IMG/VR virus record: IMGVR_UViG_3300045988_148533
Location: 1-64,000 of that record
Strand: one strand, 5' to 3'
Length of the DNA: 64,000 nucleotides
From: a virus
The position numbers and the translations under genes were made by a program. Below are positions 6,164-63,987 of this stretch, one piece after another; positions within the stretch are counted from its first letter, which is position 1; every line of letters begins with the position of its first letter. The notes beneath the pieces are model-generated. The model had not been told where the DNA came from. It saw only the letters and a list, made by a program, of their open reading frames with translations, and searched no databases.

Positions 6164-6164
6164 A

Positions 6165-8405
6165 TCATTCCATCGTTATGTGTATGTCCTTGAGGCCCTC
6201 CGTAAATGCCTCCTGCATACTCTTCCTGAGAGCATCAGGGGTAAGCCTGTCAGGACTTGTGTCAACAATATTCATTGTAACCCTCATTAAAGCAGCCTCT
6301 AAGGCAGCTGTCAAATCCCCACCTCCTTTATTTCCACCCTCATTGTCCTTCAGGTATTTATCTGCACCTTCCGTTATCCGCAGTTCCTCAGCAGCTGCAC
6401 TCGAACGCTGCACCTCTGATACATTAGCCCCAGCCTCCTCGGAGATATCTCTGCTACGAACAGTACCTTCAAACATCCTGTCAATAGCAGCCTGATAATC
6501 ACCACCCGAATTTTTAAGGCTTTCATCGAGCTCATTTATATCCGTCCAGTGCATCCCAGGAGCGACAGACTTCAGAGTCGTCCTAAAGTTTTCACCACCG
6601 CCTGTTTCCTCATACAGTGACTTGACAACATTCTGCATAAGTCCTGACTCATTTGGATTCTCCACCATAGCCATCAATTCACTGAATGTAGCCTCGGGGT
6701 TCATTTTACGTGCCTCTCTCATCATAAAAGCCCTTGTCACCTCATCCTGAGACACATTAGCACCTGTCATAAACTCTTGAACCCTCTCAAGTTGAGACCC
6801 CTGCATTCCTGTTGTCTGCTGTACTCCTGTCATTGTACGCACAAGTTCCTCAGAGTTCACAGAACCTGCAACCCCCAGAACCTGCTGTGCTATCCTGTTA
6901 TAAGTATCAAGATTCTCACTCAATCTGCCGGAACGTGCATAACCTCTATACCCCATATTCGTGAGATTCGTGTCAAACGAAGATATGACTGTATTAGGAG
7001 CAACACCTGATTCATCAAACCGTGCGGTTCTCATCGTAGCTGCCTGCTGCTCATCCGAAAGCCCTCTTGCTTTTCCCCACAGTACAACCTGATTGGCCCT
7101 CCTGTTAATATCATTAAAGAAAGCCATATTGTCCGCTGAACTGCCACCGTTCACAAATCCAGTCGCTCGAGTGTCCATCCCAGCTGCAAGTAGTTCATTC
7201 ACCTTTGAGGCATAATCGCTTGACGTCATACCGAGATAGTCCGTCCTCCAGTTATGAAGCTCAAGACCATCATCTGACAGATAGGAACCTTTCCTTACCA
7301 ACCCACTCTTTGATAGAACAACATCCTCTGATGCTGTATAATGGTTTTCAGGCTGAACTGTTACAGTCCTTGAACCAATCGGGGTAAGCCCCATCTCTCT
7401 AAAAGCCTCATCAGCTTCAGGGCTTATTTCGAATGTACCACCATTAGCAGCCGGATTAAGCGGTCTATTAACAGCCGTTGCATCAGGAGCATTCGCAAAA
7501 TTATACGTAGGAAGATTCTTGTCACCTCGTCCACGTCTTAGATTCAGATTACCATTCAAATCCCTGACATTACCACCCAAAAGAGCCACCGTAGTACCCA
7601 CGGAACCCATACCCGACTGAGCAGCCATCTCTGGAATGACATTATCAAAATTCTGATATGCCCTCCTTTCCATCTCCCTCCTCTGGGCCATCTGACCTGA
7701 AACGCCAAATGTTACAGTATTCAACAGCCAGTGCTGTCCACGCAGATTTTCCCTTTCATAGGCATTCTCGGCTCCATACATCTGCGTCCTAAACTGCACC
7801 TCCTTCCCTATCGCACCGCCTATCGCCATTGCAATCGCACCGATTCCAAAAGGGAGGCTCTTCATCAGGCCTGCAAGACTTGTAGGTAATTTAAACCCTC
7901 CTCTACCCCCACTAAGACCGCTACCAATACCTCCTGTCGGAGGTGTAGTAGTTCCGGTCGGGAGGGGCTGCTGTCCAGCAGAAGTATCCACTGTATCGCT
8001 TCCTTCATCATTCTTACGGTCTCTTTCACCCTTTTCAAGAATCTCAGCTATACGGCTGAGTTCAGACAGCATTTTGTTGAAAACAAAACTGTCCTGTCTT
8101 AAAGGGTTCAATCCTTCCCTGCCTATTGTCTGTGTAAAAGGTTTTCCAGTATTCGGGTCTATAAGCAAACCACGTCTATCATTAAGGGGTTTACTCTGCT
8201 GAGGTGCATTAGGAAGCGCAAAGAGGCTGTTTCTCTCCTTTAAAAGGTCAATCTGACGCTGTATTACATCAAGTGCCTGCTCAGATACCTCCTTAAAACG
8301 ACCCTCCATATTTGTAAAGTCGTTCCACATCGAAGCCACCTCCTGTCGCAGCCCCTGTAACGGTGAAGTGTCCGCTGATACACGTATTCTCTTATTTTCT
8401 GCCAT
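6165..8405 (-). CDS. tail tape measure protein
   Basis: 746 aa, downstream of the tube and chaperone genes. Helical/coiled-coil-like ends. Central Gly-rich hydrophobic segment GGIGSGLSGGRGGFKLPTSLAGLMKSLPFGIGAIAMAIGGAIG. Confidence 0.7.
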   Translation of the reverse strand: MAENKRIRVSADTSPLQGLRQEVASMWNDFTNMEGRFKEVSEQALDVIQRQIDLLKERNSLFALPNAPQQSKPLNDRRGLLIDPNTGKPFTQTIGREGLNPLRQDSFVFNKMLSELSRIAEILEKGERDRKNDEGSDTVDTSAGQQPLPTGTTTPPTGGIGSGLSGGRGGFKLPTSLAGLMKSLPFGIGAIAMAIGGAIGKEVQFRTQMYGAENAYERENLRGQHWLLNTVTFGVSGQMAQRREMERRAYQNFDNVIPEMAAQSGMGSVGTTVALLGGNVRDLNGNLNLRRGRGDKNLPTYNFANAPDATAVNRPLNPAANGGTFEISPEADEAFREMGLTPIGSRTVTVQPENHYTASEDVVLSKSGLVRKGSYLSDDGLELHNWRTDYLGMTSSDYASKVNELLAAGMDTRATGFVNGGSSADNMAFFNDINRRANQVVLWGKARGLSDEQQAATMRTARFDESGVAPNTVISSFDTNLTNMGYRGYARSGRLSENLDTYNRIAQQVLGVAGSVNSEELVRTMTGVQQTTGMQGSQLERVQEFMTGANVSQDEVTRAFMMREARKMNPEATFSELMAMVENPNESGLMQNVVKSLYEETGGGENFRTTLKSVAPGMHWTDINELDESLKNSGGDYQAAIDRMFEGTVRSRDISEEAGANVSEVQRSSAAAEELRITEGADKYLKDNEGGNKGGGDLTAALEAALMRVTMNIVDTSPDRLTPDALRKSMQEAFTEGLKDIHITME

Positions 8406-34229: not shown

Positions 34230-34266
34230 TTAAAAATTAACATTTGTGTATTTAAATATTTTTATT

Positions 34267-34274
34267 TTACTTTG
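34267..34274 (+). promoter_or_regulatory. near-consensus -7 box (TTACTTTG) for rep
   Basis: 22 nt upstream of ATG 34297. One deviation from TAnnTTTG. Confidence 0.35.
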
Positions 34275-34296
34275 CAAAAATTTAAATATTATCATC

Positions 34297-35046
34297 ATGA
34301 ATAATAAGGAAAAGAAGGTGGCTGTTGCCACTAAAGAATCAATTGGTGACATTGTTGATTACACTGTAAGGCAGAAGCGGTGCTGGGCCTTAATCGTAAG
34401 AGAGGTGAATAAATTTCTACCTAAGAATTTCTGGGAAATATGGCAGGAAGGGGACTTGGAAACAATTGAAAAGCTGCTACCGCTGAATAAATTTCATGAA
34501 TTTGAAATGGAAATAAAAGCCTCAGAAATATCCACAAGAAGTTCTATTGTTCCGACACTCGAAAAGCTACATAATACCGTTGTAAAGATTAGAGACAGAA
34601 AAGACTTGGAAGTCTTTAGCATTATTCATTCCTATGGCGTTGTAAACAACAGGTATTATATTCGCATAACTCCTCGTGTCATCATGTGGATTATAGGTGT
34701 AAGTAGGAGAAGACTTTTCACAGCCTTTCATTTGGAATCCTTTCTAAGGCTTTCCACAACATCCGCCATGAATCTATACCTGTATATAAGCGCAAACTAC
34801 AATAAAACTGAAGCTTCTCAGAAGGGAACATGGTCGGATACACTGGAAAATGTAAAAAAAGAAATGGGTATCACAAAAGATATAGATAATTACCGTTTTA
34901 TAAATGACTATCTCAAGCCTGCTGCTGCCGAATTAATCCTAAAGAATACCCACCTGAAAGTCAGGTATGAAGCACAAAAGGAAGAAGTTCCTGCCATGAA
35001 TAGACGTAAGGCATGGGACAGGATATTATTTATGATTGAAAAATAG
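34297..35046 (+). CDS. iteron-type replication initiator (Rep_3/RepB-like winged-helix)
   Basis: Start placed at MNNKEKK, because the ORF-track start at 34246 lies inside the promoter. The C-terminal half FLRLSTTSAMNLYLYISANYNK...TWSDTLENVKKEMGITKDIDNYRFINDYLKPAAAELILKNTHLKVRYEAQKE follows the Rep_3 pattern. Iterons lie directly upstream. Confidence 0.55.
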   Translation: MNNKEKKVAVATKESIGDIVDYTVRQKRCWALIVREVNKFLPKNFWEIWQEGDLETIEKLLPLNKFHEFEMEIKASEISTRSSIVPTLEKLHNTVVKIRDRKDLEVFSIIHSYGVVNNRYYIRITPRVIMWIIGVSRRRLFTAFHLESFLRLSTTSAMNLYLYISANYNKTEASQKGTWSDTLENVKKEMGITKDIDNYRFINDYLKPAAAELILKNTHLKVRYEAQKEEVPAMNRRKAWDRILFMIEK

Positions 35047-35631: not shown

Positions 35632-35895
35632 ATGAAAATGTCAATCAAATGGCTTGTGTACTGCCTCATCGGGCTGTGCATAGCAGCGTTCTTCGGTATT
35701 GCACTGAGAATGCAGTTCACCGTCATGGCTCCAATCGCTATTGCAGCCATCATTGTTCTTGGAATAGAACACATGAGAAACGTCACTCCTAAGCCGACTT
35801 TCAAGTCAGCGTTCCTCAATGGAGCACTGCCTGTGCTGTTGGGCGGTCTGTACATTCAGCTGTGTCTAATTCTTGAGATATGGTGGAACGTGTGA
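35632..35895 (+). CDS. small membrane protein with three predicted TM segments (holin-like)
   Basis: 87 aa. Hydrophobic stretches WLVYCLIGLCIAAFFGIAL, VMAPIAIAAIIVLGI and ALPVLLGGLYIQLCLILEIWW. Confidence 0.45.
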   Translation: MKMSIKWLVYCLIGLCIAAFFGIALRMQFTVMAPIAIAAIIVLGIEHMRNVTPKPTFKSAFLNGALPVLLGGLYIQLCLILEIWWNV

Positions 35896-36206
35896 GACTT
35901 CTGCTGTGCGTCATAATAGCGTCAATAACGCTGTATGTCGCTGGATGTGGTACAGTGCCTCGGGTGCTGTACCACAGTTCCACCACGACGACCCCTGTGA
36001 CCGTTATTGACAGCCTGAACAGCATACACGGCACTCACTTCAACGAGTGGTGGAGGGGCTGGGACAGTCAGAGCTTCATAGCGAATGACTCCACCCTTGT
36101 CACTTCCTATGTGGCCACTGAACGTCATGCCGATACGCTGTACGTCATTACTGTCGTGCATACCTTCAATGATACACTTGTAACAGTTCGCTTTAGAAGA
36201 GAATAA
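35880..36206 (+). CDS. small lipoprotein (108 aa)
   Basis: Signal peptide plus lipobox: LLLCVIIASITLYVAGC. Confidence 0.55.
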   Translation: MVERVRLLLCVIIASITLYVAGCGTVPRVLYHSSTTTTPVTVIDSLNSIHGTHFNEWWRGWDSQSFIANDSTLVTSYVATERHADTLYVITVVHTFNDTLVTVRFRRE

Positions 36207-36211
36207 CAGCC

Positions 36212-36805
36212 ATGCTTTCAACCGGATATATAAATACACCCAAGGAAATATATGAACGTCAGTCCATCCTCGAACCTACGGACAGTGCGCTGCCTGAAAG
36301 GTATCTACTCAAGAATCTGCTGCCTGTACAGAATCAGGGAAATCTGCCTGCCTGTGTGGGATATGTCATCAACGAAATGTATCAATACAGGCTTCAACTG
36401 GACGGTCTAAGTGATGCAGCACGTATAACACCGGAATACATCTATCGCAGCCGTTCCAATAGAGAGGTGGACGGTATGAATCCAGTGGATGGATTTACAA
36501 TTCTAAGGGAATCCATTTCAGATTCATTCAAACTGCATTGGGCACGACTGTCCACGGCTGCAATAAAAGAAGCCGTGATGGGGTTAGGCCCTGTGATGCT
36601 GTGCATGGCCTGTCACAGTTACAGTAAAGAATTCTGGAAAGGGGGTGGTCTTCTCGGAGGTCATGCCGTGTCCATTGTCGGGTGGAATGGCGGTAGATTC
36701 ATCCTTAAGAACTCATGGGGCACGGAATGGGCCGACGGTGGGTACACCGAGATTCTTCTTCCTGAGATTAACTCCTATGGACAGGAAATGTGGGTTCTCA
36801 TATAA
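36212..36805 (+). CDS. papain-family (C1A) cysteine peptidase, minimal 197-aa form
   Basis: QGNLPACVGYV (oxyanion Gln plus catalytic Cys with papain spacing), GGHAVSIVGWN (His), LKNSWGTEWADGGY (the Asn-Ser-Trp block of papain). Confidence 0.85.
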   Translation: MLSTGYINTPKEIYERQSILEPTDSALPERYLLKNLLPVQNQGNLPACVGYVINEMYQYRLQLDGLSDAARITPEYIYRSRSNREVDGMNPVDGFTILRESISDSFKLHWARLSTAAIKEAVMGLGPVMLCMACHSYSKEFWKGGGLLGGHAVSIVGWNGGRFILKNSWGTEWADGGYTEILLPEINSYGQEMWVLI

Positions 36806-36861
36806 AAATTCAGGAGGGGTGAAGCACACCCCTCCATTCCTATAAAATCATGTCGTGTGCA

Positions 36862-37755
36862 TCAGTAGCAGTTCACAGTCTGACTGCCGTTCTGCAGGGT
36901 GAACGGCCCATATACCCTTCCACCTGCTCCAGGTGCTGTCCACGACTCTGATGACTGAGTAAATCTTATGTAGAAAGTGCCACCCACCATGATGTTGTCC
37001 TGTGTGACCATACTCTGTGACTGACTGAAGTCATAGCCCGACAGAGTGCCTGCCCACTGTTTGATAAAGTTGTTACCCGACTTAGTCATGCCTGTAAATA
37101 GACTCTGGGCTGCTCCCGGAACGCTGTTGTCCGTGCCTATGTATGCTGCATACCATACAGCACCGCCTGTATTGGCTGTAAGGGTATAGCCTGGAGTCAC
37201 TGAGTTGGCCTTCTGGCCGAAGGTGAACCCAACCGTGGAGCCTGTCACCTTATTTGTAAAATAGTATTTGCAGGTTCTTGCAACTGTTCTACCGTTACGT
37301 GTCCATGAAATGCCTGTACTAAACTGTTTCAGAGCAGCAGTATATGTCATATTAGCGGAATCTGTCTCGTCAAATGTCACGAACGGCAGAACAGTTGCAC
37401 CTCCACTGCCTGAATTTGAGCTGATGGTAAAGTGTGCTGCGACATCCTGTGCATTGCCTCCATTTATGTACTTCTTCATGGTTGAAGCAATACATACCAT
37501 AACACTTCCGCCTGCCGCATCCAGTTCACTCATGTCCGGTCCAGGAACCACTGCTGAAAAAATGTTTACGGAGTAGTGACCGTATGTCACTGTGCCTGCG
37601 GCTTGACTTATTGATACGGTTCGGGTCAGACCGCCACCGCTGACGGTGATGGAGGTACTGCGAGAATTCTCAGTGTTATTCTGTGAAGCGGAACAGGTAA
37701 CAGTACCGTTACCGGAACCGCTGTCTGGGGTCGCTGTTATGAAACTTTTCTGCAT
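36862..37755 (-). CDS. BACON-module protein, currently expressed variant (constant N-terminal exon plus V1 domain)
   Basis: 297 aa. N-terminus PDSGSGNGTVTCSASQNNTENSRSTSITVSGGGLTRTVSISQ, then the AAGTVTYGHY junction encoded by the repeat core. C-terminus FYIRFTQSSESWTAPGAGGRVYGPFTLQNGSQTV. Confidence 0.75.
   Translation of the reverse strand: MQKSFITATPDSGSGNGTVTCSASQNNTENSRSTSITVSGGGLTRTVSISQAAGTVTYGHYSVNIFSAVVPGPDMSELDAAGGSVMVCIASTMKKYINGGNAQDVAAHFTISSNSGSGGATVLPFVTFDETDSANMTYTAALKQFSTGISWTRNGRTVARTCKYYFTNKVTGSTVGFTFGQKANSVTPGYTLTANTGGAVWYAAYIGTDNSVPGAAQSLFTGMTKSGNNFIKQWAGTLSGYDFSQSQSMVTQDNIMVGGTFYIRFTQSSESWTAPGAGGRVYGPFTLQNGSQTVNCY
37586..37604 (-). repeat. 19-nt core, copy a (inverted relative to b and c)
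   Basis: Minus strand AAGCCGCAGGCACAGTGAC, inside the CDS at the junction between the BACON module and the variable domain. Confidence 0.9.
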
Positions 37756-37787
37756 AATCGTACGATTTTAGAATTTTATTAATAACG

Positions 37788-37795
37788 CAAAGTTA
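37788..37795 (-). promoter_or_regulatory. -7 box TAACTTTG for 36862..37755
   Basis: Minus strand, 33 nt upstream of ATG 37755. Lies inside the putative invertible segment 37605..37970. Confidence 0.5.
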
Positions 37796-37970
37796 GAGGT
37801 TTGCATCGCAAAATAAAACTTACGGTTCAATTCACAGACGAAATGAGTCAAAATACGTCATTATACGGATTTAATTTTCATTTCCATATACATATATCAT
37901 TTATGGTGCGTAAATCCACGTATGAGCTGATTATGCACGACAGAATCCACCTATTGACATCCTTCTCCAG

Positions 37971-37994
37971 AAGCCGCAGGCACAGTGACGTATG
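37971..37994 (+). repeat. core copy b
   Basis: AAGCCGCAGGCACAGTGACGTATG. 19/19 match to copy a (37971..37989) and a 23-nt identity to copy c (37972..37994). Confidence 0.9.
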
Positions 37995-38674
37995 GAGACT
38001 ATCAGTGTACCAACGGCAGCAGCAGTTCATGGGTGATTGACTCAGAAGGTGAAACTATCCGAGTTATTGCCAACAGCAGTAGGATAAAATACATCAACGG
38101 CAGCAGTGTCGGCCGAGAGGCGGTAAGGCCCTCGGCCAGCTTCACCTCTGGCAGTAGCATAGGAACGATTACAGTCGGTGGGCCTACGAGTGGAACCTAT
38201 GCCTACACGATTACTGTCGTGTTTGGATTCAACCCCAGTACTTCCAATCGCAACTGGGGGATAACCGTAAGCAATAGTGGAGCATCCTTCACTTTTAGCG
38301 GTTATCAGTCTCCTAAGGCAAAGTCTGGAACCATCACTTTGAACGCAGGCAGTCAGTCGTGGGTATTTGTGGGCCTGTTTGCCACGAACACAGTTGTGTC
38401 AGCCCTGCCGAGTACCTTTAACAGCCTCACACGTGATTCCGGCAGCAATACATATACCGTCAACTGGACTACAAGTATACAGGTGAATACTTATGTAGGA
38501 ACAACCGCCCATGTCACGGTAGGAAATAACTACTATGTTCGCGTCAGTCAGACTGTGAATGCATGGAATCCCACAAACAGAGTATATGGGCCTTTCGTCC
38601 TAACGGAGGGCTCTAAGACTGAAAATATATCAGGAATACCCATAGGAGGTGGAGGGATTACTCCAGTAGGTTAG
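37985..38674 (+). CDS. V2 cassette: BACON-less homologue of the V1 domain; no ATG, only a GTG inside the repeat core
   Basis: 229 aa from the GTG. VTYGDYQ start, IKYINGSS (V1 has KKYINGGN), C-terminus YYVRVSQTVNAWNPTNRVYGPFVLTEGSKT. In-frame TGA at 37955..37957. Confidence 0.6.
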   Translation: MTYGDYQCTNGSSSSWVIDSEGETIRVIANSSRIKYINGSSVGREAVRPSASFTSGSSIGTITVGGPTSGTYAYTITVVFGFNPSTSNRNWGITVSNSGASFTFSGYQSPKAKSGTITLNAGSQSWVFVGLFATNTVVSALPSTFNSLTRDSGSNTYTVNWTTSIQVNTYVGTTAHVTVGNNYYVRVSQTVNAWNPTNRVYGPFVLTEGSKTENISGIPIGGGGITPVG

Positions 38675-39150
38675 ACTATCCTAATGTCAAACTCTCTGCT
38701 CGTCACCCTGCAGAAGTCTCCCGAGGGGGTGAGGCACCACACCTCGGTACGGTCGTCAAAATAGGAGGCGGTGAGCAGTGGCAGCATAATGGAATTGTCC
38801 ACATTCAGAAGCCCCACCTGAGACCCCTCTGGAGACATTACGACAGGAATTACACTTACATCCGCATAGCCTCCACAGCCGAAAGTGCCTTGCAGGGTAT
38901 GTCTCTTTACTGAGATAACAACCCTTTCCAGCTCCGTGGCCCTCTTGCGCTTTTCCCTGAGATAGACGGTAAGCAGCTCATTCTCAGTTATCCTTGTCTG
39001 TGTGCCGAACTTACGTGTATGGATGTTACGCAGGAGCTGTCTCTCATAGGAGTTCAGCTCCTGAAAGTCCTTCTCAAGGACTCTTATAATACTATCGTCC
39101 GTAAGGGCAGATGGATTAGCCCAACCCTGTTTCTTCTTAGTCTTCTTCAT
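38671..39150 (-). CDS. hypothetical protein (159 aa) between the V2 and V3 cassettes
   Basis: ORF track. Basic N-terminus MKKTKKKQGW. No recombinase motifs seen. Confidence 0.6.
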   Translation of the reverse strand: MKKTKKKQGWANPSALTDDSIIRVLEKDFQELNSYERQLLRNIHTRKFGTQTRITENELLTVYLREKRKRATELERVVISVKRHTLQGTFGCGGYADVSVIPVVMSPEGSQVGLLNVDNSIMLPLLTASYFDDRTEVWCLTPSGDFCRVTSREFDIRIV

Positions 39151-39194
39151 AGTGTAAAAATAACGAATTCCATCCTATGCCATCCTCATTCTTG

Positions 39195-39217
39195 AGCCGC
39201 AGGCACAGTGACGTATG
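39195..39217 (+). repeat. core copy c
   Basis: AGCCGCAGGCACAGTGACGTATG. An in-frame TGA at 39193..39195 abuts it. Confidence 0.9.
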
Positions 39218-39957
39218 AGTACTATTTTGATGAGGGTGAAATTCAATATGTAGTTCCATATTATTTTTCCAGTGTTGGAACTACTGCTGAAAGCCCTCTA
39301 AATGCACAGACAGGGCTCATTATGATAAACAGGGTAAAATTTGGAAACTGCAAAGTCATTAATATTGATGGTTCATTGAATAGAACTGTTGGTGTTGGAT
39401 ATTCACTGGAAAATGAAAGCATAGAAGGGTTCTTCAATGTCGGAGATGCAGGATTAGGTGGTCAGCTTCCGAATGGCTATGATGCTTATAAACTCACTGT
39501 AAGCCCCAATCCTGGAACTGCCACAAGACAGAGCAGCTTTGCTTTTGTAACAAATAGATACAGTGGGGATAAAACATCTACGCCTCTGGCAAAACTTTAT
39601 ATATCAGTACGTCAGTGCGGTACGGATGAATATCTTTTGGTTTTTGATGTTTCTAAAAAGAGCAATGTAAAGGGCCTGTGGCTGTTTGCTTCATCAAGTA
39701 TGCCCACAGGCACACCCACATCACAGAATTATTTTATGCCTGACAATCGTATTCCAGTGGATTATGTGACTTGGCATGGAGGTTCATTTGGGAATCTAAA
39801 AGTGAATGCTCTGAGCGGTTCAGCTGCTGGAACTACTGTTGCAGTTGGTTCTACTGTCTATTATAGAGTTTTATATGATGATGACAGTATGTGGGCACAG
39901 TCAGTTCTAAAAAGTTTCACACTGCTTAATTCTGACCAAAAAATAACGCTGCTTTAA
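39208..39957 (+). CDS. V3 cassette: BACON-less, start-less homologue; AT-rich
   Basis: 249 aa from the GTG. VTYEYYF start. C-terminus GSTVYYRVLYDDDSMWAQSVLKSFTLLNSDQKITLL. Hand-sampled GC is about 35 percent, against roughly 55-65 percent in V1 and V2. Confidence 0.6.
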   Translation: MTYEYYFDEGEIQYVVPYYFSSVGTTAESPLNAQTGLIMINRVKFGNCKVINIDGSLNRTVGVGYSLENESIEGFFNVGDAGLGGQLPNGYDAYKLTVSPNPGTATRQSSFAFVTNRYSGDKTSTPLAKLYISVRQCGTDEYLLVFDVSKKSNVKGLWLFASSSMPTGTPTSQNYFMPDNRIPVDYVTWHGGSFGNLKVNALSGSAAGTTVAVGSTVYYRVLYDDDSMWAQSVLKSFTLLNSDQKITLL

Positions 39958-39961
39958 GCAT

Positions 39962-40429
39962 TCATGGAATCTGCTTTATTTTACACCGAACTGGTCCAGC
40001 TGTAAAGCCGTTCACCTTTATGTAGTTAGTGTTATTGAGCACCCACACGAGAGCCATATAGAGTGCGTCTATGAAGCATATTCCGTGAATGCTTATTAAT
40101 TCACTTGGGAAGTCCATGCTGCTGTTCAGGAACTCCATGTAGTCATAGGAGACTATATGCTCGGGGTATGATATATTTAGGAAGTACTGATGCTGCCTTT
40201 TATTGTACTCACCGACTATTTCCTGTGGAAGCAGTCTCAGGAGGTCATGAACGGTGAAGACAGGCTCGACGTGGAAGCTGAGCAGCGGTACAAGGTTGCT
40301 TTCATATATGCCGATGACTGGACTGCCTCCGCTGCCTGTACGTATGTAGAGGAGAGCCTCCCTCTTGATGTCAATACCCAGAGACTTCAGCATAAGCATC
40401 TGCTCGGGCTGTAAGTACCATTTTTCCAT
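39962..40429 (-). CDS. hypothetical protein (155 aa)
   Basis: ORF track. Confidence 0.6.
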   Translation of the reverse strand: MEKWYLQPEQMLMLKSLGIDIKREALLYIRTGSGGSPVIGIYESNLVPLLSFHVEPVFTVHDLLRLLPQEIVGEYNKRQHQYFLNISYPEHIVSYDYMEFLNSSMDFPSELISIHGICFIDALYMALVWVLNNTNYIKVNGFTAGPVRCKIKQIP

Positions 40430-43073: not shown

Positions 43074-44258
43074 TTACAGGATTATCGGAATATCCAGAAT
43101 AGCCCCTGTCTCCTTGGAGACCTTGATGACATCCACCTCGTCGAACTGTATGCGGTGGATGTAGCTGCCGAGCAGCTTCGCAACCATTCTGGGGGTGTAG
43201 AAGTCTCTCTCGATGAGGTACGGTGACACGGCCACGAGCTGAGGCATGGACTGCTGCCTTCTACCGTCTGACCCGACGATGGTGTAGGTGTAGGTGACGG
43301 TATAGTAGTATCTGTTTCTGAATGTATGCACGGTGTCATTGAAGTCCATGTCTCCGAAGATGGCCATGGGGGCCTCATTGTATCTGTCCACCGAGAACGC
43401 CAGTCTGGCGTCAGGCATACAGCCCTGCACACAGGCTGAGATGATGCGCCAGCGACTCTTCTCATCACCGAAGGGACGGAAGAACGGCAGATTGCACTCG
43501 TTCTCGAACCATGCCATTAGGGAAACTTCGTCCTCGCTGTCAGCCACAAATACCTCATCCGGAATGTACACGGTATTGTAGAACACGCTGCGAGCCGTCT
43601 TCTCCCCTGTCCTGTCCACCACACCCATAATCTTGACAGGTATCATAATGGGGTCATCAGCACCCCTGAATTCCTTAGTGCTGCCATCATCATCGTCCTC
43701 ATCAGCATGGACGTCAGGTGCATCCTTCTCCACGTCCTTTTCAGGCTCTGGAGATGGAGCGGTGGCGTAGGGATTGTCCTCCCACAGGCGAATGTCATTC
43801 TCAGGGTCAGAGGGGTCTGTCAGCACACTGCCGTCTGACAGCATCACGTCCCACCCCTCTCCGGTGGCCACGGCAGGAACCCACTGTACATCCTTACAGA
43901 GGTTAGCCTTATCATTCACCAGCTTCAGACGTACCCACACCTTCTGATTCCTGGTGAGTCCGACAGGCTTCTCGTCCTTCTTAGGAGCCTGATTCACCGT
44001 CACGATGACACGGCCTCGGCCGTCCACCTCACCCTGACATTCACAGTCTGTGAGGCTCCAGTCCTCAGCCTCCTTCTCACCTATTTTCTCGGCAAGAGAC
44101 TTCTTCATAAGCCTGCACAGTGCGTCGTTCAGGACGTACTGCTCGTGAGACTCCGCCACAATGTTCATTCCAATTTCGGTGCGACCCTGAGCATCAGGCG
44201 TAGCACGCTTGAACGTCGCACGGTACATAAATTTCTTCATTTTGTTATTCTTCTTCAT
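43074..44258 (-). CDS. hypothetical protein (394 aa) with an acidic central tract
   Basis: ORF track. Contains PDVHADEDDDDGSTKE. Confidence 0.65.
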   Translation of the reverse strand: MKKNNKMKKFMYRATFKRATPDAQGRTEIGMNIVAESHEQYVLNDALCRLMKKSLAEKIGEKEAEDWSLTDCECQGEVDGRGRVIVTVNQAPKKDEKPVGLTRNQKVWVRLKLVNDKANLCKDVQWVPAVATGEGWDVMLSDGSVLTDPSDPENDIRLWEDNPYATAPSPEPEKDVEKDAPDVHADEDDDDGSTKEFRGADDPIMIPVKIMGVVDRTGEKTARSVFYNTVYIPDEVFVADSEDEVSLMAWFENECNLPFFRPFGDEKSRWRIISACVQGCMPDARLAFSVDRYNEAPMAIFGDMDFNDTVHTFRNRYYYTVTYTYTIVGSDGRRQQSMPQLVAVSPYLIERDFYTPRMVAKLLGSYIHRIQFDEVDVIKVSKETGAILDIPIIL

Positions 44259-53442: not shown

Positions 53443-54069
53443 CTAATCCCCCTCCGAAAACCTTATCGAAAACTCACTCACAAGCACTGGGTCTGCTGCT
53501 GCAAGTCTCCTAAACAGACGCTTCGCTCTGTGGCACAGACGATGTGCCTCCCGTTCCTCCATACCGCACATCGCTCCCACCTCATCATACGGCATCTCGT
53601 ACACGTAGTGCAGGCGCAGAACCTTTGCCAGCTCCGCAGGCATCTCATCCAGCACAGCGGATATCCTCCTGCTGTTCTCATTCCTCTCTGCCTCCTCCTC
53701 AGGCGTAACCCCGTCGGGGTCGGGCAGCTGGAACTCCTGCTCATCGTCAGGGTCCCCGACGGGTGCGTCAATGCTTGTAAGGGTCAGCCGCTTCTTCCTT
53801 ACGTAGTCTATGGCGCAGTTGCGTCCTATCCTCACGAGCCATGCGCTGAGCTGATATGTAGGGGTATAGGTGTCGAGCCTGTCAAAGGCCTTTGTGAATG
53901 TCTCCGAAACTATGTCCTCTATTGCAAAGGGGTCAGGCACTCTCTTATATACGTGCCACATCACCATGTTCTTGTATTTCCTGTATATCTTCTGGTAGGC
54001 ACTCTGGTCTCCGCAGAGTGCCCTCTGCACGTAGTAGAAGTCGGTGCGCTTGTTGCTCTCCTGTTTCAT
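53443..54069 (-). CDS. ECF-type sigma-70 family RNA polymerase sigma factor
   Basis: Region 2: YRKYKNMVMWHVYKRVPDPFAIEDIVSETFTKAFDRLDTY...WLVRIGRNCAIDYVRKKR. Region 4: LRLHYVYEMPYDEVGAMCGMEEREAHRLCHRAKRLF. Confidence 0.8.
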   Translation of the reverse strand: MKQESNKRTDFYYVQRALCGDQSAYQKIYRKYKNMVMWHVYKRVPDPFAIEDIVSETFTKAFDRLDTYTPTYQLSAWLVRIGRNCAIDYVRKKRLTLTSIDAPVGDPDDEQEFQLPDPDGVTPEEEAERNENSRRISAVLDEMPAELAKVLRLHYVYEMPYDEVGAMCGMEEREAHRLCHRAKRLFRRLAAADPVLVSEFSIRFSEGD

Positions 54070-57304: not shown

Positions 57305-57766
57305 CTACTCCGTTCGACTCCGAATCATCCACGCCTCCTTCTCCATCTCCACAAGAGTGTCCTCAAGCAGCGTTCTCGTACCTAAGTCGTCCTCAGGGAG
57401 CTGACCGTGCACCATCTTAATGCCCCCTATCAGCGTCTTCCAGTCAGCGTGTACGGCCACCCATATCTCCTTTCCGGTGGGCACAGGGGCTGTTGCAGGC
57501 ACTTCCTGAATGTGGTTGCGCTCAAGCATTTCTCTCATGCTGCTCACAGGGCGTCCATCCAGAACTCGTATGCGCTCGGCGAGAGCGTCAATGCGGTCAT
57601 ACTCCTTCTCGTAGAGCTCCTGAAGGTAGGCGTGATTGTTTCCGAACATCGTTCCCCTTACATTCCAGTGGTACTGCCACAGCTTCAGGAACATTGTAAA
57701 ACTGTCGGCCAACAGGCCATTGAGCATCACTACCGTTCTGCTCTGATTGCTTTCATTGTTTTCCAT
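57305..57766 (-). CDS. dps: Dps-family ferritin-like protein
   Basis: LNGLLADSFTMFLKLWQYHWNVRGTMFGNNHAYLQELYEKEYDRIDALAERIRVLDG matches the Dps ferroxidase-centre region. Confidence 0.8.
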   Translation of the reverse strand: MENNESNQSRTVVMLNGLLADSFTMFLKLWQYHWNVRGTMFGNNHAYLQELYEKEYDRIDALAERIRVLDGRPVSSMREMLERNHIQEVPATAPVPTGKEIWVAVHADWKTLIGGIKMVHGQLPEDDLGTRTLLEDTLVEMEKEAWMIRSRTE

Positions 57767-59997: not shown

Positions 59998-61578
59998 TTA
60001 CTTCTTTTCAGGTTCTATCGCTATTGCACAGGACGTTGTCAGAAACTGCATTGTGACGGACACGGCATTTTCAAGGGCCACCCTGAACACCTTTGCAGGG
60101 TCAACGATGTTCTCGTCCTGCTCAAGGGTCTCATAGTTCAACCCCTTGTTCTCCTCGTTCATGGACATAACTATGTCATCCTCCGTAAGGGAGGCGTTCA
60201 CTGCAAGCTGATGCAGTATGCCGTACACGGCCTCCATAACGGAGCGATATCCAGCAGTGAAGCTCTCATTCCAGCCACTGTCAATATTCCTGCGAAGCAG
60301 TCCATACACAAGCAGCTGAATAACACCTCCTCCGGGAACAACCCCCTCAGCCACGGCAGCACGAACGGCTGCAACGGCATCGTCAACCCTGTCCTTGCGC
60401 TCGGCCATCTCAACCTCACTCCTTCCTCCTACCGCAATAGTGGCTGCACCGCCTGTGATGTTGGCTATTCTCTCACGACATTTCTCTTTATCGTAGGTAG
60501 AGGAGGCCGTCTCAGCCAGAGCCTCTATCTCGGCCACGGCCCTGTCAACCCTGTCAGCACTGCCACTACCGCCCACGATATTAGTGGAATTGACATTCAC
60601 GACAACCTTGTCAGCCTCGCCGAGGACGCTCATGTCAATGTTGTCAAGGGTGTACCCAGTGCCACTGCCTACCACGTCTCCTCCGGTGCGTGCAGCAAGG
60701 TCACTGAGCAGGTCTTTCTGCATGGAGCCGTATCCGGGAGCCTTCACGAAGCACGCAGACAGACCGTTCTGCTGCCTTACATTTGCCACGATGAACTGCA
60801 TTACATCGGCACTTGCATCCGGAGCAACAATCAGGAGGGAACGCTTCTCGCTGTACACCGTCTGAACTGTCGGCAGGATAGACTGCACATAGTTTATCGG
60901 CTCACTGCTTAATAGAATGTAGGGGTGATGCAGCACGCACTCCATTCTGTCACTGTTGGTTACAAAGTAGGCATTCGTCAACCCCTTGTTCCACTTAAAT
61001 CCGTTGGTGACTGTAACAGTCACACCCTCATCGCTGCCCTCCTCAACGGTAATAACACCGTAGTCACCGACACGGAACAGGGCCTCAGCCACGGCAGCAG
61101 CAGCCTCCTCATCACCGTTGGTGCTTATAAGTGCAACGCTCCTGACGGCATCCACGTCGTCGCCTGCAAGGGGTCTGGCCATGCGCTTGATTTCCTCGAC
61201 GGCAAGACTGAGGGCCTCCTGCATACCCTTGCGAAACTCCCTAACATTCAGCTTCTCTATCCCCATGGAAATGGCATTTCTAAGAATGCCGTCTGTCAGG
61301 ATTGTGGCCGTAGTCGTTCCGTCTCCGGCATCATCACAGGTTCGGGCTGCTGCGAGCTTCAGCATGGTAGCACCCATTCTCCTAACAGGGTCTTCAGTGT
61401 CGTAGGCACGTGCAACGGTCACACCGTCCTTTGTGACATGGGGTATGCCGTACCCCTTGTCTATTATTACATTGTGGCCGTAAGGGCCGAGAGTTGAGCC
61501 GACCGCCTTGGCGACCTCACTTACACCCTCATACAGGGCTGTAAGTGCCTCTCTGTCAAACAGAATCTTTACATTCAT
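59998..61578 (-). CDS. groL: GroEL-like (Cpn60) chaperonin
   Basis: TLGPYGHNVIIDKGYGIPHVTKDGVTVAR...DDAGDGTTTATILT matches the GroEL N-terminal equatorial domain. 526 aa. Confidence 0.85.
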   Translation of the reverse strand: MNVKILFDREALTALYEGVSEVAKAVGSTLGPYGHNVIIDKGYGIPHVTKDGVTVARAYDTEDPVRRMGATMLKLAAARTCDDAGDGTTTATILTDGILRNAISMGIEKLNVREFRKGMQEALSLAVEEIKRMARPLAGDDVDAVRSVALISTNGDEEAAAAVAEALFRVGDYGVITVEEGSDEGVTVTVTNGFKWNKGLTNAYFVTNSDRMECVLHHPYILLSSEPINYVQSILPTVQTVYSEKRSLLIVAPDASADVMQFIVANVRQQNGLSACFVKAPGYGSMQKDLLSDLAARTGGDVVGSGTGYTLDNIDMSVLGEADKVVVNVNSTNIVGGSGSADRVDRAVAEIEALAETASSTYDKEKCRERIANITGGAATIAVGGRSEVEMAERKDRVDDAVAAVRAAVAEGVVPGGGVIQLLVYGLLRRNIDSGWNESFTAGYRSVMEAVYGILHQLAVNASLTEDDIVMSMNEENKGLNYETLEQDENIVDPAKVFRVALENAVSVTMQFLTTSCAIAIEPEKK

Positions 61579-61650: not shown

Positions 61651-63987
61651 TTATTTCCGCTTAAATTCAATTTCGCAGCTTCCGCCTGTGCAGGCCGAGG
61701 CCACTTCACTGCCTGCCTCCCTGATTGGCTCGTCCCACTTAATGCTGCTGTAATCCACAGCCCTCATTCTACTTAGGACGCACCATCTGTGCAGAGCGTC
61801 CACGTGCTTCAGACAATGACTGGTTTTAACCCTGTCACCTTCCATGTAGCGGTTAGCAAAATTGTTGAAGCGTCGTATCCAGTCCTTGCGCTTGGCTATC
61901 TTGTTGCGCAGATAGTCCAGCACGCAGTTGATGTCACTGAAGGACACACCGTCTATGCTCGCAATAAAGTGTCCATCTGTTATATTCTCCACAACAAAGG
62001 AGGCTATCTCCTCGTTTGTCATTTCAAGCAAGTTCTGCTTGCGCCCGAGGGCCACCTCACACGCCTCCCATATACTGCTGAATACCTCCAGCGCATCGAC
62101 AATCAGTCCGCTGCTTAGAATAGCTCCACTGCCGTATTCAGCAACAAGCTCTTCCTCCGAGAGCACCTCCATGAACGGAGCCTGTGGGTAGTCAAGGTCT
62201 CCAGTTGCAGGCAGGAGGCTGACACCGCTGAAATTGTTCCTGTTTTCCCATAGGAACTCTCTAACGTCACCCCATTCGCCCTCACGAACAACGCACGTAT
62301 TTGAAACATTCATGCTTAGCTTAGGTGTGGCAAGGGTTGAGGGGTGCTCGGGGTTCCTACCGCAGTCTATCCAGTTGCGCTTGGTAAGCAGCACCACGTC
62401 CCTCAGGAACTGAACAGCAGTCAGATTCTTCTTAATAAGCGTATTTTCCGGCAGTGTTACAGGGAAGGATATCACCTTTTCCATCGTGGGGTTCCACACG
62501 CTCGGCTCAACCGCCTCGGGATTCACCCTTTCAAACTCCTGTAGACACTGCTCCGTGTCATTGGCCTGTATATGCCGTATGTAATGTCTGCTGTGTCCTG
62601 GAGTTATACCGCTTAAAGTACCCAACAGCTGACTGCTGTTTCCCGAGGGCTTCACGACTGTGCATCGTGCAGCCGGACTGATGTGCAGCAGCTTGGCCAG
62701 TGTCTCATTCGTCCTGCGCACTATCATCGCACCGTTGCTCTGTATGTCAGGATTCAGCAATATATCTGGGTTCTCACATATACCTGTTATCCCGACTCCT
62801 ATCAGGGCATCTCTCCGTGCTATCCTCTCCGACCATTCGGTGAGCATAGGAGCAAAGTCGGTGTATCCAGCCTGAAGTGTGGCTATAATCGCAGCTGCCT
62901 CACAGGCCAGATAGAAGTCGTTCTCAGTCTTGACCTTGCCACCGTTTATCTCCACTAAGTTGCAGAAGCCCCACCCACTGTGCCATTCACCACTATCATC
63001 CTGATACTTAGGGAATAAGCCTACCTCTGCGCAGGGATTCAGGATAAAATCAGGACTTTCCAGAAATACAAATCCGGGCTCTCCGTATGCCTTTACACTC
63101 TCAAATATCCTGTCAAACTGTTCCTTAGGAGTGTCAGGCAGGATAACAGCGGAATTATTGCAGCGACACAGTTCTGGCATTGTCTCCATCCAATTGCCTG
63201 TCTTGCAGTTAGCCATCTCAGCATCGTCGGCATCGAATAAACTAATCATCGCACTACGACGCACCCCACCGCTGACAACGGCATTGGCACAGATGCACAT
63301 TATATGGTGAACCTCAAAGGGCGTCAGCCTCCTGCCTCTAATTCCTCTCAGAACGGAGAAAATTTTATCCAGTGCTCTTTTCAGAGGTAAGTGTCCGGGA
63401 GCCCTGAAGCCTCCTCTTATATAAGCCCCTTTCGGGCGAATAAGAGAATAATCATAGTCAGGTACACCATAGCCGAAGAAAAAGCTCCTCATCATGGCAT
63501 CCACGGCCTCGGCCCACCCCTCTATTGTATCGGGTATTACAACCTTGCTCCTCTCGGACATATTGAATCCTACTGCAATAGGCAGCTTCTCAACGTGTCG
63601 CTTCTGCACGCTGTATCCAGTGCCTGCACCGCACAGCAGCAGATATGTCAGTTCCTTGAACACCTCCACTCTGTCCGCATAGGTTCCGGCACAGTTATAC
63701 ATTCGTGGGTGCTTCTCAAGCAGCAGCTCGCCTCCGTACTGAAGAGCTCTCTGCGCACCCAGAATTCTCTTTTCCATGTAGGCTGCTCCGGCCAGTGTCA
63801 TGTAATTCTTAAGGTAGGTGATTTCCTTGGGGTCAAGACGCCTGCTGTAATATGCAAGGTGCATATCAAGCACCCTGCGAACAGCCTCCTGCCATGTTTC
63901 CTTTTTTCCAGTGTTCCTGTTGAATTTTGAATACTTGCTTAGGAAGACATACTGTCCTATTTCCCCTCTACTGTCAATTGGCTTCAT
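61651..63987 (-). CDS. nrdJ: ribonucleotide reductase, class II (adenosylcobalamin-dependent)-like
   Basis: 778 aa. N-terminal YSKFNRNTGKKETWQEAVRRV, active-site ILNPCAEVGL and GFCNLVEIN, C-terminal redox pair ACTGGSCE. No ATP-cone or adjacent beta-subunit gene was seen in the window. Confidence 0.7.
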   Translation of the reverse strand: MKPIDSRGEIGQYVFLSKYSKFNRNTGKKETWQEAVRRVLDMHLAYYSRRLDPKEITYLKNYMTLAGAAYMEKRILGAQRALQYGGELLLEKHPRMYNCAGTYADRVEVFKELTYLLLCGAGTGYSVQKRHVEKLPIAVGFNMSERSKVVIPDTIEGWAEAVDAMMRSFFFGYGVPDYDYSLIRPKGAYIRGGFRAPGHLPLKRALDKIFSVLRGIRGRRLTPFEVHHIMCICANAVVSGGVRRSAMISLFDADDAEMANCKTGNWMETMPELCRCNNSAVILPDTPKEQFDRIFESVKAYGEPGFVFLESPDFILNPCAEVGLFPKYQDDSGEWHSGWGFCNLVEINGGKVKTENDFYLACEAAAIIATLQAGYTDFAPMLTEWSERIARRDALIGVGITGICENPDILLNPDIQSNGAMIVRRTNETLAKLLHISPAARCTVVKPSGNSSQLLGTLSGITPGHSRHYIRHIQANDTEQCLQEFERVNPEAVEPSVWNPTMEKVISFPVTLPENTLIKKNLTAVQFLRDVVLLTKRNWIDCGRNPEHPSTLATPKLSMNVSNTCVVREGEWGDVREFLWENRNNFSGVSLLPATGDLDYPQAPFMEVLSEEELVAEYGSGAILSSGLIVDALEVFSSIWEACEVALGRKQNLLEMTNEEIASFVVENITDGHFIASIDGVSFSDINCVLDYLRNKIAKRKDWIRRFNNFANRYMEGDRVKTSHCLKHVDALHRWCVLSRMRAVDYSSIKWDEPIREAGSEVASACTGGSCEIEFKRK

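Follow-up and report, generated by a model that had tools for sequence, protein, structure and literature searches.

A probable inversion switch joining one promoter and BACON-coding exon to alternative C-terminal cassettes in a large phage

Introduction

How can a phage gene with a single promoter and a single constant 5' exon come to be joined, in frame, to one or another of several C-terminal domains? The question is raised by a locus at 36862 to 39957 of the 64,000-nucleotide (nt) stretch of viral DNA, positions 1 to 64,000 of the IMG/VR record IMGVR_UViG_3300045988_148533, that we analysed here and call the window. At this locus an exon encoding a BACON module is fused to a first cassette, V1, and two further cassettes, V2 and V3, lie silent in the opposite orientation, each opening with a copy of the short repeat that forms the exon/V1 junction. 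An initial annotation, made from the sequence alone, had read this arrangement as a shufflon-like switch in which promoter and exon flip. Following it up by computational comparison with related genomes, we conclude that the switch itself is very probably real, that is, that inversion at the junction repeats fuses the exon to alternative cassettes.

Gut Bacteroidota vary their surfaces (capsules, S-layers, SusC-like shufflons) by DNA inversion, partly to escape phages (bioRxiv 10.1101/521070). Phage-side counterparts of these host systems are barely described: the classical cases and the recent ones from Bifidobacterium and BV01-like phages concern temperate phages with an adjacent invertase (PMC6109161, PMC13596623), and invertons in gut viral assemblies were first reported in 2026 (PMC13501310).

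Results

An inverted core repeat at the edge of three cassettes

The gene in its present arrangement is an open reading frame (ORF) of 297 amino acids (aa) on the minus strand (36862..37755). It begins with the constant 5' exon of 51 codons (37604..37755, minus strand, ATG at 37755), in which the BACON module (PF13004) was recognised at aa 4-52 of the exon::V1 protein with an E value of 2.4e-8 and 34.3 bits against a gathering cut-off of 25, and it continues across the junction, read as ...SISQAAGTVTYGHY in the protein, into the V1 body (36862..37585, minus strand, stop codon at 36862-64; identical protein P0008). The 18-nt core of this junction, AGCCGCAGGCACAGTGAC, has exactly three exact copies in the window and none elsewhere in a scan of the 64 kb, even when three mismatches are allowed; the chance expectation is 0.05, and three copies were reached in none of 100 shuffles. 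Copy a (37586-37603, minus strand) encodes AAGTV(T) at the exon/V1 junction, and copies b (37972-37989, plus strand) and c (39195-39212, plus strand), both inverted relative to a, form the 5' edges of V2 and V3, respectively. Copies a and b share 19 identical nt and copies b and c share 23, so that the recurring 19-nt string and the 23 nt common to the V2 and V3 copies, as first described, hold with an exact three-site core of 18 nt.

The silent cassettes are V2 (body 37990..38674, plus strand; ORF 37985..38674, 229 aa) and V3 (body 39213..39957, plus strand; ORF 39208..39957, 249 aa), the latter silent in the window and fused to the exon in a sister genome (P0094). As the initial annotation had stated, both lack the BACON exon and any ATG, begin at the GTG of the core and have an in-frame TGA upstream (37955-57 for V2, 39193-95 for V3). 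The three cores are read in a common codon phase, GCC GCA GGC ACA GTG AC, and in-silico inversion agrees with this reading: recombining a with b gives an intact in-frame exon::V2 of 284 aa, recombining a with c gives an intact in-frame exon::V3 of 304 aa, and V1 is left stranded behind a stop codon. The small invertible segment between cores a and b (37604..37971; 366 nt between 31-nt arms) contains the promoter and the exon, and the large one between cores a and c (37604..39194), a block found inverted in the relative L004, contains in addition V2 and orf159 (38671..39150, minus strand), a conserved gene that rides as a passenger and is also present in relatives with a single cassette.

The promoter box TAACTTTG, of the Bacteroidota -7 type, lies at 37788..37795 on the minus strand, 32 nt upstream of the exon ATG and inside the segment between cores a and b. 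It is the sole TAnnTTTG within 36.8-40 kb, in line with the earlier description of a lone recognisable promoter in this segment, and a TAnnTTTG box is retained at the same place in the divergent relatives L019, L005 and L020. A promoter scan with the sigma-70 consensus was set aside as uninformative for a host of the Bacteroidota type.

Beyond the core, exact matches between cassettes reach at most 15 nt (V1/V2) and stay below 10 nt for V1 and V3; the core can therefore not be put down to ordinary paralogue conservation, and the equally long identities scattered among V1-V3 that the initial annotation had named as a possible refutation were not seen. Homology of the cassette bodies is significant for V1 and V2 (27% identity, E 4e-14). 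For V3, none could be demonstrated with V1 or V2 beyond the junction (BLASTP E 0.06-0.1), a profile-profile comparison with hhalign giving E 0.065 across 49 C-terminal columns only; of the homology first proposed for all three domains, the V1/V2 part thus stands and the V3 part does not.

Ahead of core b lies a non-coding flank (37945..37971, plus strand) that includes the TGA at 37955-57 and is 75% identical to the flank of core c (39168..39194, plus strand), where the first base of the core is also the last of the TGA at 39193-95. A flank of this kind, about 27 nt long and TTCCAYCCTATNNCATYCTYNTTCTYGA-like, precedes every silent core in all genomes (window, L002, L003, L005, L019). Its copies agree at about 75% of positions, next to cassettes that cannot be aligned with one another, and it may serve as an insulator or as an arm bound by a protein. 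TGACCCGAACCGTATCAATAAGTCAA, the 26 nt with which the exon ends (37603..37628, minus strand), is single-copy in the window and recurs, inverted, before a fourth cassette, V4, in the relatives L002 and L019.

Two further repeats were noted at the locus. An inverted repeat of 17/18 nt (36872-36889 / 38542-38559), of which 15 are exact (CAGTCAGACTGTGAA, coding SQTVN), pairs the 3' extremity of V1 with a site in V2 that is not homologous to it and at which relatives have SQV[VL]N; it looks like a conversion patch specific to the window or a further crossover site. A 25-nt inverted repeat (39955-39979 / 40071-40095, 88% complementary, 91 nt apart) falls on the V3 stop codon and the 3' end of orf155 and may be a terminator or another rearrangement site.

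Related genomes carry the expression site in different orientations

About a dozen independent relatives were recovered through protein searches and contig look-ups, and their locus layouts were drawn from tblastn maps, all oriented with the peptidase gene on the plus strand. The window, L001 and L003 share one order: peptidase gene (+), V1 fused to the exon (both -), V2 (+), orf159 (-), V3 (+) and orf155 (-). L002 has the same order with V4 as a fourth silent cassette between the promoter and V2. The peptidase gene (+) is followed in L019 by an unfused V1' (-) and the exon fused to V4 (both +); in L004 by orf159 (+), the exon fused to a cassette V5 (both +) and orf241 (-); in L005-10 and L025-27 by V4 fused to the exon (both -) and orf159 (-); and in L020 by the exon fused to V4 (both +) and orf159 (-).

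At the DNA level, L002 and L019 have clean reciprocal junctions. The silent V4 of L002 has no ATG. Its start is formed not by the core but by the final 26 nt of the exon, copied in inverse orientation, and its first 8 codons are exon codons. In L002 the exon runs through CCGTATCAATAAGTCAA into GCCGCAGG and V1, and the flank is followed by CCGTATCAATAAGTCAA, AAGGGAACC and V4; in L019 the exon runs through CTGTATCAATAAGTCAA into AAGGGAACC and V4, and the flank is followed by CTGTATCAATAAGTCAA, GCCGCAGG and V1'. The segment with promoter and exon is inverted in L019 relative to L002, and in L019 it lies between perfect 24-nt inverted repeats 346 nt apart.

The larger rearrangement is seen in L004, where colinear flanks enclose the counterparts of window 37587-37954 and 38653-39217 in inverted orientation, arranged as an a x c inversion would leave them. 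Its junctions consist of the c flank, a core and a V1-like remnant on one side, and of the exon, a core and a cassette in the V3 position on the other. Both cores carry four substitutions and the bodies of V1 and V2 are deleted; L004 is thus the large inversion state, frozen and in decay. Between shared flanks, the expression site points one way in L005 and the other way in L020, and L005 retains 12 nt of a second V4 3' end beside orf159, from which we infer that their ancestor had two V4-type cassettes flanking the expression site. Remnants of V3 are kept in both. An exon-end remnant at the left boundary of L020 was withdrawn after realignment, which showed ordinary promoter-upstream sequence.

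The L019 contig (6590-6625) breaks off just where a core copy begins (…TTCTTGAG), as an assembly-graph branch at the repeat would make it do; this may hint at mixed orientations in that sample.

Such an end at the core start, together with the tendency of inverted repeats around a segment of about 350 nt to confuse assemblers, is what would be expected if the different arrangements were artefacts of assembly. We regard this as very improbable, since the repeats, at 18-31 nt, do not exceed the smallest k-mer expected for such assemblers and are far below read size, the states come from different samples and assembler name formats (k141_, NODE_, scaffold_, Logan), and the deletions, remnants and decayed cores of L004, L005 and L020 cannot be assembly errors.

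Sister strains are found in three expression states

Synthetic exon::V2 and exon::V3 chimeras used as queries returned zero fusions among cluster representatives. When the members of 90% clusters were listed, sister strains from the clade of L002 came to light; their fused forms are non-representative members of these clusters, which is why representative-only searches had missed them.

Three states are found in this clade. V1 is expressed (ON) in contigs of 100,884 (L002), 100,629 and 101,294 nt, with fused proteins of 294 aa (P0009, P0099 and P0100, respectively); unfused V4 (261-283 aa) is present in all three, unfused V3 (249 aa) in the 100,884- and 100,629-nt contigs and unfused V2 (229 aa) in those of 100,884 and 101,294 nt. 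V4 is ON in a contig of 101,518 nt, where the fused protein P0126 has 347 aa (MQKSF...SISQ/KGTRRYLVNI..., the slash marking the junction); here V1 is the unfused P0101 of 239 aa, which begins MTYGNY at the core GTG, and V3 the unfused P0090 of 249 aa, both reported, like P0126, with a longest contig of this length. V3 is ON in a contig of 101,307 nt, in which P0094 (...SISQ/AAGTV/TYEYYFD...) has 304 aa, the size of the in-silico a x c product, and V1 (P0102, 220 aa) and V4 (P0122, 261 aa), reported with a longest contig of the same length, are unfused. Both P0094 and P0126 exceed the BACON (PF13004) gathering cut-off.

The exon is identical across all three states (aa 1-51), and a given cassette has 96.8-98.5% identity between its ON and OFF versions. 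Each of three cassettes is thus found both fused and unfused: V1 in P0009 versus P0101 and P0102, V3 in P0094 versus P0095 and P0090, and V4 in P0126 versus P0121 and P0122.

The comparison of related phages for alternative orientations, which had been proposed as a check, therefore gave a positive answer, with reciprocal junctions in L002 and L019, an inverted a x c block in L004 and three states among sisters. The prediction that a flip would fuse promoter and exon in frame to V2 or V3 came true for V3 (P0094), and no exon::V2 protein was found; the companion prediction, that V1 would then fall silent, is matched by the unfused V1 of the V4-ON sister, starting at the core GTG, and by that of the V3-ON sister.

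Silent cassettes and the core are conserved

Silent V2 and V3 contain no stop codons, and the ratio of non-synonymous to synonymous substitution rates (dN/dS) is 0.10-0.31 at dS 0.13-0.53 (window, L002, L003), with 0.18-0.31 for V2 and 0.10-0.19 for V3 between genomes; silent compared with expressed V4 gave 0.23. Open frames and low dN/dS values indicate that the silent cassettes are maintained as coding sequence by purifying selection.

The core is invariant in 10/10 intact copies from four distinct genomes (window, L002, L003, L019). Four-fold degenerate sites differ by 11-29% between genomes, and the five such sites of the core never vary among these copies; the sole decayed cores are those of L004, which has lost partner cassettes. 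Within a genome, the bases that follow the core co-vary: each of the three L002 copies continues with ACATACG and each of the three L003 copies with ACGTATG, and the window has a mixture. Exact tracts at the junctions measure 18-23, 23-31 and 24-27 nt, and V1 and V2 of L002 share a non-synonymous change after the core (TYGNY).

These data bear on whether the arrangements could be the record of a few past inversions, by illegitimate or homologous recombination, with no ongoing switching and with V2 and V3 being GTG-translated genes or on their way to loss. Each sample has a single consensus orientation, V1 is the ON cassette in every assembly of the strain that the window comes from, V2 and V3 have open frames starting at the GTG, and cassettes have been lost, with decayed cores or remnants, in L004, L005-L010, L020 and L025-27, all of which would fit. 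We nevertheless hold this explanation to be improbable: three states among genomes that differ by 1.5-3% in their cassettes and by 0 in the exon require repeated recent events, the silent cassettes are under purifying selection, silent V4 starts with exon codons and no ATG, in-frame stops stand just upstream of V2 and V3 with no promoter box found there, and the core is conserved at the nucleotide level where intact, decaying only on partner loss.

No invertase was found, and two different repeats recombine

The search for a serine or tyrosine recombinase covered about 92 of the 101-103 kb of the phage genome and found none. Scans of the 65 window ORFs with Pfam, PHROGs and NCBIfam gave zero recombinases (no Resolvase PF00239, no Phage_integrase), in agreement with the initial annotation, which had recognised no recombinase gene in the window, and precomputed Pfam assignments for the extensions of +/-10 kb past both window ends contained zero Resolvase or Phage_integrase. 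In phmmer searches of 440 six-frame ORFs, Hin matched nothing below E=1, and XerD and FimB nothing below E=0.4. No recombinase emerged when a 394-aa ORF (43074..44258) and its neighbouring ORFs were searched individually, orf159, orf155, orf241 and other conserved neighbours had no family match, and with a concatenated query toward the last 10 kb only the RNase T-like half matched. On the host side, 185,579 species-representative genomes contained 28 single unrelated matches to the core and no paired inverted sites, and thus no evidence for a host inverton with this site. The wider scan of the phage genome for invertases that had been suggested is in this way negative for the roughly 92 kb covered.

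V4 recombines at the last 24-26 nt of the exon, with no overlap with the core, and both kinds of event occur within one sister clade. Among its recombination and repair genes the phage has SMC_N, UvrD, a ligase and exonucleases, and an N-terminal IIGVDPG motif is read as that of a putative RuvC-like protein.

Because no recombinase was found, V4 uses a different junction repeat and the core-adjacent bases co-vary per genome, homology-guided inversion is favoured: given that the switch is real, exchange guided by short homology through general recombination, and not by a dedicated invertase, seems to us somewhat the likelier course. The same switch driven by a dedicated site-specific invertase, with the core and the conserved 27-nt flank as its binding site, we consider rather unlikely. 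Such an enzyme would be encoded in the approximately 10 kb of phage outside the search, be a divergent and unrecognised protein, or be supplied by the host. Trans-acting invertases are numerous in Bacteroidales, and the phage may borrow one of them. An invertase would suit an 18-nt core kept exact at synonymous sites in 10 copies of four distinct genomes, a repeat size typical of recombinase sites, a conserved non-coding flank ahead of every silent core and an invertible segment of about 350 nt, similar in size to bacterial invertons. The site combines a conserved arm with a variable one, like the asymmetric sfx sites of Rci (PMC11852207), and every described phage shufflon uses an invertase (PMC6109161, PMC13596623). 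Set against this are the negative search, the V4 repeat, which shares no overlap region with the core sites, so that one fixed crossover point cannot serve both, the identity tracts, which vary in length between genomes and reach into cassette-specific codons (including TYGNY in V1 and V2 of L002), and the core itself, never paired in inverted orientation in the species-representative genomes.

The switched protein and the phage that encodes it

The V domains had no match in Pfam, PHROG or PDB sequence searches, and V1 is an orphan among 1.84 billion representative proteins. Two AlphaFold runs gave all-beta, unreliable models with predicted local distance difference test (pLDDT) scores of 50 and 43, too poor for a fold search. 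The switched protein has no signal peptide. A human-faecal phage, MT835775.1 (L028), encodes directly after its baseplate genes a 732-aa fibre-like protein (5233-7431) in which four tandem BACON-like modules are joined by SLSQAAGEV[ST]WEY linkers, the same motif as at the window junction, which identifies the junction motif as a natural inter-domain linker of fibre-like proteins. By analogy, the variable domains may act in binding specificity or host range.

In a more distant lineage, the cluster of P0017 (contigs of 97-110 kb) holds a 272-aa BACON protein as well as truncated members of 128-139 aa that start near a ...SQEAA[TV]ISYEL... linker; a similar switch may exist at another linker in this second phage lineage.

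The phage is myovirus-like and of roughly 100 kb, complete contigs measuring 99.6-103.3 kb. According to Pfam and PHROG, the 65 window ORFs include a portal, SU10-type capsid, sheath, tail-tube initiator and head protease, together with GroEL, a class II ribonucleotide reductase, an extracytoplasmic function (ECF) sigma factor, NUDIX, ferritin and a polynucleotide kinase (PNK)-phosphatase. The extensions past both ends add baseplate J, Flg_new_2 fibre proteins, an intein-bearing terminase, DnaB, dUTPase, HMUD2/HMUDK, ThyA, ligase, SNF2, RNase H, UvrD, SMC_N and the RuvC-like protein. Portal identity is 36% with Bacteroides thetaiotaomicron myoviruses and 53% with a human-faecal phage contig; these portal relatives, the BACON module and the -7 box suggest that the host is probably a member of the Bacteroidota. 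No integrase was seen by Pfam in the window and its extensions. Near-identical DNA was absent from INPHARED phages; in IMG/VR the core scan returned unrelated genes only, and orf159 and a V1 profile matched nothing; among JGI metagenome contigs, neither orf159 nor an exon-plus-core 24-mer found a match. A diversity-generating retroelement was rejected, as there is no reverse transcriptase family among the 65 window ORFs and no template repeat, that is, no long direct repeat with A-specific mismatches.

To the left of V1, a G+C-rich hairpin (36813..36835) separates it from the convergent peptidase gene (36212..36805, plus strand) and is likely a two-way terminator and the left outer limit of the locus. 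The peptidase side belongs to a putative lysis cassette (35632-36805), directly left of the switch, with an 87-aa membrane ORF, a 108-aa ORF with a lipoprotein-like signal and, as third member, a 197-aa papain-family peptidase (PF00112, E 4.9e-9). A Rep3-type replication initiator (34246-35046; PF01051, E 3.9e-6) is present in this phage, in which no integrase was seen. An ECF-type sigma factor, a ferritin-like protein, a GroEL chaperonin and a B12-dependent class II ribonucleotide reductase lie at 53443-54069, 57305-57766, 59998-61578 and 61651-63987 of the window, respectively. Outside the window, the large terminase is split by an intein with a LAGLIDADG endonuclease (L024 9889-19892, L021 18875-20927), followed downstream by genes for DnaB, dCTP deaminase/dUTPase, HMUD2, HMUDK and thymidylate-synthase-like proteins, a set that suggests hypermodified thymidine in the phage DNA.

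Discussion

Taken as a whole, the evidence leads us to prefer an expression-site switch guided by homology. In its boldest form, to which we give a probability of roughly 0.4, this would be a programmed shufflon that operates with no recombinase of its own: a probably virulent phage would keep junction homologies of 18-31 bp identical, through selection and gene conversion, and flip its expression site by general recombination among up to four unrelated C-terminal domains. Recombination between the repeat on the exon side and one on the cassette side would invert the DNA between them, turning 368 nt with promoter and exon in the a x b case, or 1.6 kb with exon, promoter, V2 and orf159 in the a x c case. 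The exon would then be joined in frame to another cassette and the formerly expressed cassette left behind a stop codon. Strand exchange would be guided by the 18-31 bp of homology itself and carried out by general recombination functions, and the repeats would be kept identical by recurrent exchange or gene conversion together with selection. The variable domain would set binding specificity in adsorption or host range, so that the switch would diversify the phage population.

Several points weigh against this preferred reading. The evidence consists of consensus assemblies compared with one another, not of read-level heterogeneity in one population, and all assemblies of the window's own strain (L001 and three contigs, from JGI, ENA and Logan, with the identical V1 protein P0008) are V1 ON. 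The placement of fused and unfused cassettes on one contig, for those of 101,307 and 101,518 nt, is deduced from matching reported sizes, and the exon::V2 fusion was seen nowhere, neither with chimera queries nor among listed cluster members. At 18-31 bp the repeats have a size typical for site-specific sites and are short for general recombination to be efficient, the conserved 27-nt flank before each silent core could be a protein-binding arm, and the invertase search left about 10 kb of the phage and the host genome outside its reach. The gene lies outside the tail module, beside the putative lysis cassette, so that a role in adsorption is tentative.

The closest systems in logic are bacterial. 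In the vsa locus of Mycoplasma pulmonis, a promoter with N-terminal coding DNA is recombined by inversion into silent genes (PMC4534519), and vsa, vpma of M. agalactiae and mba of Ureaplasma share with one another the same logic of a crossover at the junction and 5'-truncated silent genes (PMC4534519, PMC3047005, PMC2268961). The window locus, too, has a single promoter and 5' exon with silent genes that lack promoter and start codon, and the same cassette is found fused and unfused in close relatives (V1, V3, V4). The mycoplasmal systems differ in that they encode bacterial surface lipoproteins, have an adjacent dedicated tyrosine recombinase and use one defined site; compared with vsa, the window locus belongs to a phage, has no recombinase found and uses two different junction repeats. 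The initial annotation had set the mobile promoter and 5' exon apart from Gin, Cin and R64, and this layout is borne out, but it is not unprecedented, as vsa works likewise (PMC4534519).

Among phages, the nearest systems are the tail-fibre switches Mu Gin/G, P1 Cin/C, p15B Min, the Bifidobacterium prophage Rin and the BV01-like Phocaeicola shufflon. They likewise combine a constant N-terminal part with C-terminal cassettes of little or no mutual similarity chosen by inversion, and there, as here, states differ between related genomes (PMC6109161, PMC13596623, PMC9881135). These known systems are those of temperate phages, with the invertase gene adjoining and with the promoter and constant part fixed outside the invertible region; in the window locus no invertase or integrase was found, promoter and exon themselves turn, the gene lies apart from the tail module, and the product joins a 51-aa BACON module to orphan domains. 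More specifically, Gin, Cin, Hin and Min have a serine invertase gene (PF00239) beside the segment, a constant part outside it and one site of about 26 bp, whereas the window locus has no such gene, holds promoter and exon between cores a and b, and recombines V1-V3 at a shared 18-nt core and V4 only at the adjacent 24-26 nt. With Rci, Rin and BV01-like systems it shares several C-terminal cassettes offered to one N-terminal part by inversion, but not the flanking tyrosine recombinase. R64, with Rci and sfx, also has many cassettes for one constant 5' part and asymmetric sites with one conserved arm (PMC11852207), and it differs in its recombinase, of which no Rci-like counterpart was found here, and in that V4 has a site with no core. 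The parallel with Gin, Cin and Rci drawn at the outset therefore survives as logic, and fails where the enzyme and the site of V4 are concerned.

Bacteroides shufflons (the susC-like genes BT1040-46 of B. thetaiotaomicron, and B. fragilis) also exchange 5' ends at a single promoter, in the same host phylum, and have been proposed to vary phage receptors (bioRxiv 10.1101/521070); they differ in being host-encoded, driven by a tyrosine recombinase and dependent on a 7-bp crossover site. No long shared 5' regions of hundreds of bp, the hallmark of sap-type loci, are present in the window, where exact tracts are 18-31 nt. In sap of Campylobacter fetus (Dworkin and Blaser), the unique promoter is reportedly carried by an element that inverts between cassettes facing in opposite directions, inversion being RecA- and homology-dependent and not the work of an invertase; this bacterial system, which varies the S-layer protein, is said to have homologues sharing about 600 bp of 5' sequence. 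A similar reliance on general recombination proteins at our locus would be indirectly supported by the two repeats, the conversion-like pattern and the failure to find an invertase.

What is new here is thus that no invertase was found, that two different repeats serve as junctions, that the expression site is the part that turns, and that phage and protein are of another kind. The locus adds to the known phage switches a multi-cassette, gene-altering one in a large phage with no integrase or invertase found, and it teaches a practical lesson, as the fused forms were hidden as non-representative members of 90% clusters. If the variable domains do bind the host surface, one genome would encode three or four specificities, and host-range predictions made from a consensus assembly would be wrong. 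If exchange is indeed guided by homology, inverton searches that require a nearby recombinase would miss such loci, and programmed variation can evolve without a dedicated enzyme.

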